In this document: positions 60,377 to 63,300 of the stretch, piece after piece
Layout: each line of letters starts with the position of its first letter
Numbering within the stretch: the first letter of the stretch is position 1
NCBI RefSeq assembly: GCF_057098645.1
Contig: NZ_CM169472.1
DNA length: 64,000 nt
Reading direction: 5' to 3' (one strand)
Made by a program: the position numbers

Positions 60377-63300
60377 TAAAGGCAGTACATTAAAACAAGG
60401 AGCGGCAATGTATTACGGGTTTGATATTGGTGGAACAAAAATTGCGCTTGGCGTGTTTGATAGCGGTCGGCAGTTGCAGTGGGAAAAGCGGGTGCCGACA
60501 CCGCGTGATAGCTATGACGCATTTTTAGATGCAGTGTGCGAGCTGGTAGCCGAAGCTGATCAACGTTTTGGCTGTAGAGGTTCTGTCGGCATCGGTATTC
60601 CGGGAATGCCGGAAACAGAAGATGGTACGCTGTATGCCGCCAATGTCCCCGCTGCCAGCGGTAAACCGCTGCGTGCCGACCTGAGCGCACGTCTTGATCG
60701 CGATGTACGCCTTGATAACGATGCCAACTGTTTTGCCCTTTCAGAAGCCTGGGATGATGAATTTACGCAATATCCACTGGTGATGGGGTTGATTCTCGGC
60801 ACCGGCGTTGGCGGCGGGCTGATTTTCAACGGCAAACCGATTACCGGTAAAAGCTACATTACCGGCGAGTTTGGCCATATGCGTCTGCCGGTTGATGCGT
60901 TAACCATGATGGGGTTGGATTTCCCGTTACGCCGCTGCGGCTGTGGTCAGCATGGCTGCATTGAAAATTATCTGTCTGGTCGCGGTTTTGCGTGGCTGTA
61001 TCAACACTATTATCATCAACCGTTGCAGGCTCCCGAAATTATTGCGCTTTATGATCAAGGCGATGAGCAGGCAAGGGCGCACGTTGAGCGTTATCTGGAT
61101 TTATTAGCGGTTTGTCTGGGAAATATCCTGACCATCGTTGACCCTGACCTGGTCGTCATTGGTGGTGGCTTATCGAATTTCCCGGCAATCACAACGCAAC
61201 TGGCGGACAGGCTGCCTCGTCATCTCTTACCTGTAGCTCGTGTTCCGCGCATTGAACGCGCGCGCCACGGTGATGCGGGAGGAATGCGTGGTGCGGCCTT
61301 CCTACATCTAACCGATTAAACAACAGAGGTTGCTATGCTGTCGCGTCGGGGTCATCGGTTAAGTCGTTTTCGTAAAAATAAACGCCGCCTGCGCGAGCGT
61401 TTGCGTCAGCGTATTTTTTTCAGAGATAAAGTGGTGCCGGAAGCAATGGAAAAACCAAGAGTACTCGTACTGACAGGGGCAGGAATTTCTGCGGAATCAG
61501 GTATTCGTACCTTTCGCGCCGCAGATGGCCTGTGGGAAGAACATCGGGTTGAAGATGTGGCAACGCCGGAAGGTTTCGATCGCGATCCTGAACTGGTGCA
61601 AGCGTTTTATAACGCCCGTCGTCGACAGCTGCAGCAGCCAGAAATTCAGCCTAACGCCGCGCATCTTGCGCTGGCTAAACTGCAAGATGCTCTCGGCGAT
61701 CGCTTTTTGCTGGTGACGCAGAATATAGACAACCTGCATGAACGCGCAGGTAATACCAATGTGATTCATATGCATGGGGAACTGCTGAAAGTTCGTTGTT
61801 CACAAAGTGGTCAGGTTCTCGACTGGACCGGAGACGTTACCCCAGAAGATAAATGCCATTGCTGCCAGTTCCCGGCACCCTTGCGCCCGCACGTAGTGTG
61901 GTTTGGCGAAATGCCACTCGGCATGGATGAAATTTATATGGCGTTGTCGATGGCCGATATTTTCATTGCCATTGGTACTTCGGGGCATGTTTATCCGGCG
62001 GCTGGGTTTGTTCACGAAGCGAAACTGCATGGCGCGCACACCGTGGAGCTGAATCTTGAACCAAGTCAGGTCGGTAATGAATTTGCCGAGAAATATTACG
62101 GCCCGGCAAGCCAGGTGGTGCCAGAATTTGTTGAAAAGTTGCTGAAGGGATTATAAAGCAGGAAGCATTGCCTGATGCGCTACGCTTATCAGGCCTACAA
62201 GCGGACCACAATACCGACGAAAGAGCGGGATAAAACTTTACTGTCCTGACTCATTAGCCACATCCTTGCTAACTAAAAAACGGGCGGTAATACCACCGCC
62301 CGCTTGCTGAATTAACGTCCTGCTTTCAGCTTCTGATAATACTCTTCATAAATGCTGCTGGCTGCGCCAACGTCATTCTGCCATTCGCCATTTTTAATGG
62401 TTTCAGCATCCGGGTAGAGCGTCTTATCGTTCGCCACTTCTGGACTTAACAGCTTACGCGCCGCAAGGTTTGGCGTTGGATAACCGATAGTTTCAGCAAC
62501 CTGTTTTGCCACATCCGGGCGCAGCAGGAAGTTGATCAATTTCAGCGCGCCTTCTTTGTTTTTGGCATTTGCCGGGATCGCCAGGCTGTCCATCCAGAAT
62601 ATGCCGCCTTCTTTCGGCCACACCACGTCAATAGGCGTACCCGCCTGGCGTGCAACGAAAGCAGAACCGTTCCAGATCATGCCGAGGTTAACTTCGCCTT
62701 CCATGTACGGGTTAGCCGGGTTATCGGAGTTAAAGGCTGCCACGTTTGGCATCAGTTTTTTCAGCTCGTTATATGCAGCTTCAATCTCTTTCGGATCGGT
62801 GGTGTTACCGGAGTAGCCCAGCTTACGCAGCGCCATCTGGAACACTTCACGGGCATCGTCGGTCAGCAGCAGGCTGCCTTTGTACTCAGGCTTCCACAGA
62901 TCGGCCCAGCTGGTAACGGATTTCGGATCTACCGCATCACCGTTAACGCCAATCGCCGTCGCCCCCCAGATATACGGAATGGAGTAGTCGTTATTCGGGT
63001 CAAACGGCTTGTTGAGCATGTCTGGATCGAGGTTGCTGAAATTGCTTAACTTCGACTTGTCGATCTTCTGGATCATCCCTTCTTTACGCATTTTATCGAC
63101 GTAATAGGTTGAAGGAACCACCAGGTCGTAGGCACCGTCTTTGTACGTTTTCAGCTTGGCGTACATGGTTTCGTTCGACTCGTAAGTCGAATAGATAACC
63201 TTAATACCGGTTTCTTTGGTGAACTGTTCAAGCAGTCCTGGCGGCACGTACTCGGTCCAGTTGTAGAAATACAGCGTGTTGTTGTCATCGGCGTGAGCGG

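Follow-up and report, generated by a model that had tools for sequence, protein, structure and literature searches.

A comparative-hybridization study lists the segment K-loop#88 / KI#52, described as "homolog of virulence factor; b1121", as a part of the Escherichia coli K-12 chromosome that is absent from O157:H7 (PMC2749873), and b1121, which is ycfZ, has been used as a variable marker gene (PMC2749873). In a pangenome comparison, YmfA and YcfZ are among the membrane proteins that vary between strains (PMC10304320), an amoeba-grazing study likewise has ycfZ and ymfA among its strain-variable membrane-protein genes, and one of the genes mutated in phage-resistant APEC isolates is ycfZ. The literature retrieved on ycfZ and ymfA names them only as markers or in lists such as these and contains no functional study of either protein. 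The absence of the two genes from O157-type strains has been catalogued since the first O157:H7 genome comparisons and is an ordinary structural polymorphism. The locus described here lies in a stretch of 64,000 nucleotides from contig NZ_CM169472.1 of assembly GCF_057098645.1, hereafter the window. The segment missing from it is the same as the b1121 region of KI#52 / K-loop#88 and nothing substantive differs, except that the nearest match of the window is O145 RM9872 and not O157:H7.

Results

The cobB-potD junction of the window

The gene order in the window is lolC-lolD-lolE-nagK-cobB on the plus strand and potD-potC on the minus strand, as read from the ORF list, and cobB and potD are convergent. 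The cobB stop codon ends at 62156 and that of potD starts from 62312, which leaves a gap, 62157-62311, of exactly the 155 bp that an earlier note on this DNA had given. The parts of the junction, with the basis of each assignment, are as follows.

61335..62156, plus strand: cobB, Sir2-family deacetylase of 273 aa, ending in TAA (ORF list; identical region in O145 RM9872 annotated WP_000952736.1; translations compared)
62170..62198, unstranded: REP element, imperfect palindrome GCCTGATGCGCTACGCTTATCAGGCCTAC (hairpin in the fold; multi-copy matches)
62199..62210, unstranded: putative deletion junction (blastn coordinates; side-by-side junctions of the window, HS, K-12 and JNE181771)
62211..62254, minus strand: ymfA 5' remnant, ATG at 62254-62252 and about 14 further codons (translation and alignment to ymfA alleles)
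62255..62277, minus strand: potD-ymfA intergenic spacer of 23 bp, with the ymfA ribosome-binding site (RBS) AAGGA at 62267-62263 (sequence reading; match to K-12 and JNE181771)
62278..62305, minus strand: predicted intrinsic terminator of the potABCD operon, AAGCGGGCGGTGG-TATT-ACCGCCCGTTT then TTTTAGTT (terminator scan; dominant hairpin in the RNA fold)
62312..63358, minus strand: potD, spermidine/putrescine-binding periplasmic protein of 348 aa, intact (ORF list; annotation in RM9872 and Sakai)

The element at 62170-62198 has the properties of a REP, being an extragenic imperfect palindrome just 3' of the cobB stop that is present in multiple copies; the REP-bearing segment, with a core of 33 nt, matches a median of 9 chromosomal places per E. 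coli genome, while a second copy of the core was not found within the 64-kb window with up to 3 mismatches allowed. The predicted pot terminator, read from 62305 to 62278 on the minus strand, begins 6 nt after the potD stop and has a stem of 12 bp, 7 of them GC pairs, a loop of 4 nt and a T-run, which is the GC-rich stem-loop and T-run that would be expected of an intrinsic terminator. The earlier note had described the gap as holding one REP and the pot terminator, and both are there; what it overlooked is the 5' remnant of ymfA, with which the gap would be a scar and not an empty site. An Rfam scan of 61300-63400 at E ≤ 1 matched no RNA family, and thus no known sRNA or riboswitch is present in the gap. 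A promoter scan of 62000-62500 returned a single weak sigma-70-like site, on the plus strand inside potD, which is at chance level and was dismissed. The stop codon of cobB, the REP and the terminator of the pot operon all remain intact, and the neighboring genes would therefore be expected to be unaffected by the deletion.

Comparison with the long form of K-12

In the K-12-lineage genome O16:H48 PG20180170 (locus L001), the order is cobB, ycfZ (minus), ymfA (minus) and potD (minus), and the gap between the cobB and potD stops is 1,423 bp; this is the K-12 order that the earlier note had given, with the two genes at this place and not elsewhere. In this genome ycfZ encodes a TPM-domain protein of 262 aa and ymfA a DUF3592 protein of 153 aa, and these two domains are the only ones that Pfam detects on the two proteins missing from the window. 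The GC content of ycfZ and ymfA is 42.6-43.5% versus 50-53% in the flanking genes. By blastn, window positions 61300-62206 correspond to L001 783-1688 and 62211-62700 to L001 2980-3469, so that 1,291 bp of the K-12 locus are replaced in the window by 4 bp, CACA at 62207-62210. Compared with the long-form locus of E. coli (K-12, JNE181771, ST131 and others), the window shares the flanks, the first REP, the pot terminator, and the RBS and first codons of ymfA, but it is without 1.29 kb comprising the whole of ycfZ, about 90% of ymfA, and the second, inverted REP of the two that the long form contains.

The junction and the ymfA remnant

Homology to the left flank extends to about 62206 and homology to ymfA begins at 62211, with the CACA at 62207-62210 assignable to neither side. 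The left parental side reads ...CAAGGGGAC / GCAATTAATTG and the right side ...CAGACCG / ATACCGAG, and the product is ...GGGGAC-CACA-ATACCGAC. At the join, the parental sequences have only GAC(C), 3-4 bp, in common. The join thus runs from just 3' of the first REP to about codon 15-17 of ymfA, with 2-4 bp unassignable. In a reconstruction of the junction from five intact ymfA alleles, none reproduces the join without a 2-nt indel (plus a substitution) or filler. The locus has no target-site duplication, terminal inverted repeats or recombinase of the kind that mobile-element excision would entail, and the long form contains ycfZ, ymfA and a REP only, with one breakpoint falling within the ymfA coding sequence.

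Positions 62211-62267 are the 5' end of ymfA, comprising the RBS, the start codon at 62254 (ATG, minus strand) and about 15 codons that align in register with those of intact alleles. The remnant was aligned to the ymfA alleles of K-12, JNE181771, E. albertii, E. whittamii and MOD1-EC7003. The coding start after the ATG at 62254 reads ATGAGTCAGGACAGTAAAGTTTTATCCCGC..., and 41 of the 44 nt of the remnant are identical to the JNE181771-type allele (MSQDSKVLSRAFLGIG... in JNE181771, MSQDSKVLSRSFVGIV... in the window), with the alleles of E. albertii and Escherichia sp. MOD1-EC7003 being similarly close. The homology to ymfA stops after GGTAT. In a search with a 65-mer across the junction, 396 long-form genomes match positions 26-65 of the query inside their annotated DUF3592 gene. 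The remnant now reads as an ORF of 19 codons, 62195-62254 on the minus strand (MSQDSKVLSRSFVGIVVRL*), that ends inside the REP, and its position beyond the pot terminator makes expression unlikely.

Distribution of the short form

A presence or absence survey, such as the earlier note had proposed, divides 5,426 complete E. coli genomes into two exact complements: the K-12 ycfZ-ymfA segment is matched in 4,850 (in 4,827 over at least 80% of its length), and the other 576 (10.6%) have a short, contiguous cobB-potD junction and no megablast match to the segment. The junction 44-mer (62193-62236) occurs at one place each in 555 of the 5,426 genomes and the 65-mer is covered to at least 80% in 560; the remaining 16 short genomes, which match less than 80% of the 65-mer, could have a diverged or an independent junction. 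Carriers of the short junction include O157:H7 Sakai and EDL933, O55:H7 DEC5A and O145:H28 RM13516 and RM12581, and outside that clone HS, O18ac:H14 873.10, O9:H10, 2013C-4282 and USMARC-49610. The deletion allele is fixed in the O157:H7/O55:H7/O145:H28 clones and scattered elsewhere, with carriers placed by strain names and general knowledge. As in the O157-type short allele, the gap of the window contains no CDS for ycfZ (b1121) or ymfA (b1122) and its junction is that of the reference O157:H7: the 44-mer and the 65-mer are 100% identical in Sakai and EDL933, and an alignment of 181 bp with Sakai is identical. The scar is also carried by Escherichia sp. E1V33, a species representative whose identity to the window is 94.8% over 6.7 kb.

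The scar-specific bases TCTTTCGTC and TGTGG are common to the window, Sakai, HS, 2013C-4282, USMARC-49610 and E1V33 and occur in no intact allele. Because these bases are identical in the short haplotypes that were inspected and absent from every intact allele, a single origin of these haplotypes is likely on the basis of their sequence. Divergence between the scars of different short haplotypes is 2-7%, a level comparable with that of the flanking genes, which argues for an allele that is old rather than recently spread. In the case of HS versus K-12, there are 0 differences in the last 100 bp to the left of the junction and 7 in 1,682 bp, compared with 10 in 101 bp across the scar, and HS has in this respect the mosaic composition that homologous recombination would be expected to produce.

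Other disruptions of the locus are independent of this junction. In JSMCR1 (L088 1501-1936) a different deletion has taken out ymfA together with the greater part of both ycfZ and potD, and in strain 2017.02.04CC copies of IS1 are inserted in ycfZ-ymfA; such independent disruptions exist but are rare.

Among genomes that retain the segment, the allelic classes of ymfA are deeply divergent, those of K-12 (L001 2562-3023) and JNE181771 (L005 2083-2544) being 78% identical in nucleotides and 74% in amino acids, and the ycfZ, cobB and potD beside this divergent ymfA are about 98% identical between the same two strains. The identity of ycfZ-ymfA to K-12 falls into discrete bands across the 4,850 genomes, with 1,293 at 99% or above, 276 at 95-99%, 3,269 at 90-95% and 12 at 80-90%. 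The ymfA gene is locally hypervariable and unusually polymorphic.

Genomic background of the window

The flanks in the window are 100% identical to O145 RM9872 over 1,101 bp and 99.4% identical to O157:H7 over the same 1,101 bp; identity to Sakai is 98.8% over 5.8 kb, and to K-12 it is 98.2-98.5%. This confirms that the window is from an O157/O145-type, non-K-12 E. coli. The CobB protein has a TAA at 62154-62156 where K-12 has AAA (L001 1639-1657), and is therefore 273 rather than 279 aa long, without the six additional residues KAGSIA of K-12. The earlier note had taken the short configuration as consistent with a non-K-12 background and as fitting the difference in cobB. The background is indeed non-K-12, as the flanks indicate, but the short form is not diagnostic of it or of any particular background, because the same junction is present in HS, whose flanks are nearly identical to those of K-12 and whose CobB is of 279 aa. 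The fit with cobB holds only in the sense that both are non-K-12 features, independent of each other: HS combines the short form with the 279-aa CobB and JNE181771 combines the long form with the 273-aa CobB, and with these recombinant combinations a linkage of the deletion to the length of CobB is ruled out.

Elsewhere in the window, an exact terminal inverted repeat of IS5, GGAAGGTGCGAACAAG, lies at 734-749 on the minus strand and is the sole match to that repeat. Directly after potC, both RM9872 (L002 4617-5101) and Sakai (L087 5968-8044) have a lambda-like prophage with an integrase, which is Sp6 in Sakai, and K-12 and HS have potB after potC; the window ends inside potC, so the site of the prophage is beyond it.

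The junction in other Enterobacteriaceae

A scan of GTDB species representatives anchored on PotD returned 80 loci, E. fergusonii and the K-12 representative not being among these, and in 66 of the 80 potD has a convergent cobB within the flank. The gap is 32-215 bp in 42 of the 66, including Salmonella enterica subsp. arizonae, many Citrobacter, Enterobacter, Lelliottia, Yokenella and Trabulsiella. These junctions resemble that of the window in being short and convergent and in having a terminator and/or REP-like palindromes, but they are primary empty sites of unrelated sequence, whereas the gap of the window would be a deletion scar that contains ymfA-derived sequence and so differs from a junction that was never occupied: no ymfA start, and nothing shared with the gap of the window beyond the gene ends, was found in the short gaps of Salmonella, Citrobacter, Lelliottia, Yokenella and the others.

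Homologs of YmfA are present at cobB/potD in E. albertii, E. whittamii, MOD1-EC7003, a divergent "E. coli" representative and two species of Phytobacter, and they are accompanied by YcfZ except in MOD1-EC7003, whose contig ends 240 bp past potD. The proteins of Phytobacter massiliensis (L014 4901-6132) and P. diazotrophicus (L075 5543-6774) have 55-59% (YmfA) and 50-52% (YcfZ) identity, and P. ursingii (L074) is without either at this position, so that the pair is variably present in a second genus. The cargo between cobB and potD varies among Enterobacteriaceae, with gaps of 0.4-4.7 kb at loci L013, L016, L017, L029, L041, L054-L056, L059, L068, L071 and L080. Judged by eye from ORF translations, it includes AMP-binding acyl-CoA-ligase-like, EAL/HDOD-like and methyl-accepting chemotaxis-like ORFs, a two-component system with a MipA-like protein, and sugar-utilization genes. 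A blastp comparison of the cargo ORFs of other genera with YcfZ and YmfA found homologs nowhere outside Escherichia and Phytobacter. The cobB/potD interval looks like a recurrent insertion spot.

Discussion

The 155-bp gap between cobB and potD was very probably left by one old deletion in Escherichia, about 1.29 kb in length. Along with ycfZ, this event would have taken ymfA beyond its first 15 or so codons and, of the two REPs between cobB and ycfZ, the second. The direction of change is indicated by what was left behind: the RBS, the start codon and about 15 in-frame codons of ymfA are kept, and since an unoccupied site would be without these, the short form reads as a secondary deletion. 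In the history that we propose, a primary empty junction in Enterobacteriaceae was followed by a gain of ycfZ-ymfA in the Escherichia lineage and then by the loss of 1.29 kb, with both the gain and the single deletion being inferred steps. That the pair was gained in Escherichia, and later lost in the short allele, is probable because most Enterobacteriaceae have a scarless cobB-potD junction and the GC content of ycfZ-ymfA is about 43%.

These same features could be read the other way, with the short form as the ancestral, never-occupied cobB-potD junction, as in Salmonella and Citrobacter, and the long form of K-12 as a later insertion. Most Enterobacteriaceae representatives do have cobB and potD 32-215 bp apart without ycfZ-ymfA, and the low GC content of the pair is typical of acquired DNA. 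However, the window retains a translation start and codons that are identical to an intact ymfA allele at 41 of 44 nt, and the gaps of the outgroups are unrelated to it beyond the gene ends, which would place the insertion earlier and make the short allele a secondary loss; we regard an ancestral short form as extremely unlikely. An empty site left by the precise excision of a mobile element was also considered and rejected, as the breakpoints share GAC(C) only and one of them is inside the ymfA CDS.

If the short form is a deletion, it might have arisen more than once, in the O157 clone, HS, E1V33 and others, with the microhomology acting as a hot spot. Such recurrence would account for the finding of the short form in unrelated backgrounds, among them HS with its K-12-like flanks and the species-level lineage E1V33, and other disruptions of the locus do occur, such as the deletion into potD of JSMCR1 and the IS1 insertions. 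Yet all of the short haplotypes inspected have the same unassignable CACA and the same scar substitutions, which are found in no intact allele, and a microhomology of 3-4 bp is too weak for identical events to have been repeated, making recurrent deletion highly improbable. As for a collapsed region or another artifact of assembly or sequencing, no evidence in its support was found, and 576 genomes finished independently of one another, Sakai and EDL933 among them, show the same configuration, with the annotation of Sakai being empty between ECs_1498 and ECs_1499; the chance of an artifact is negligible.

For the single deletion, illegitimate microhomology-mediated recombination or replication slippage is the likely cause, rather than the excision of a mobile element, given the lack of a target-site duplication, inverted repeat or recombinase and the position of one breakpoint in the CDS; since no sampled intact allele gives the junction without a 2-nt indel, this is a mechanism that we infer. 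The deletion allele now segregates in Escherichia as a presence/absence polymorphism, and homologous recombination between lineages would best account for its patchy spread.

One further consideration is whether selection has acted on the locus. A deletion allele that is old, has a frequency of about 10% and is shared with E1V33 at about 5% divergence, ymfA classes at 78% identity, and the appearance of the genes in the amoeba-grazing and phage-resistance lists together suggest that ycfZ-ymfA might be under long-term balancing or diversifying selection, a suggestion that we consider rather unlikely to be correct. If it were true, phages, predators or host factors would be targeting the two envelope genes, whose loss would be adaptive in some niches, for example in the bovine-associated O157/O145 clones.

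The short form is most simply seen as a deletion variant of no special consequence. At the practical level, positions 62193-62236 are usable as a clean single-copy marker of the short allele, and 62211-62254 can be annotated as a remnant of ymfA instead of featureless intergenic DNA. What the locus adds to the polymorphism as already known is the exact junction, a ymfA remnant that would fix its polarity, a frequency of 10.6%, and the indication of an old allele that is common to several lineages.
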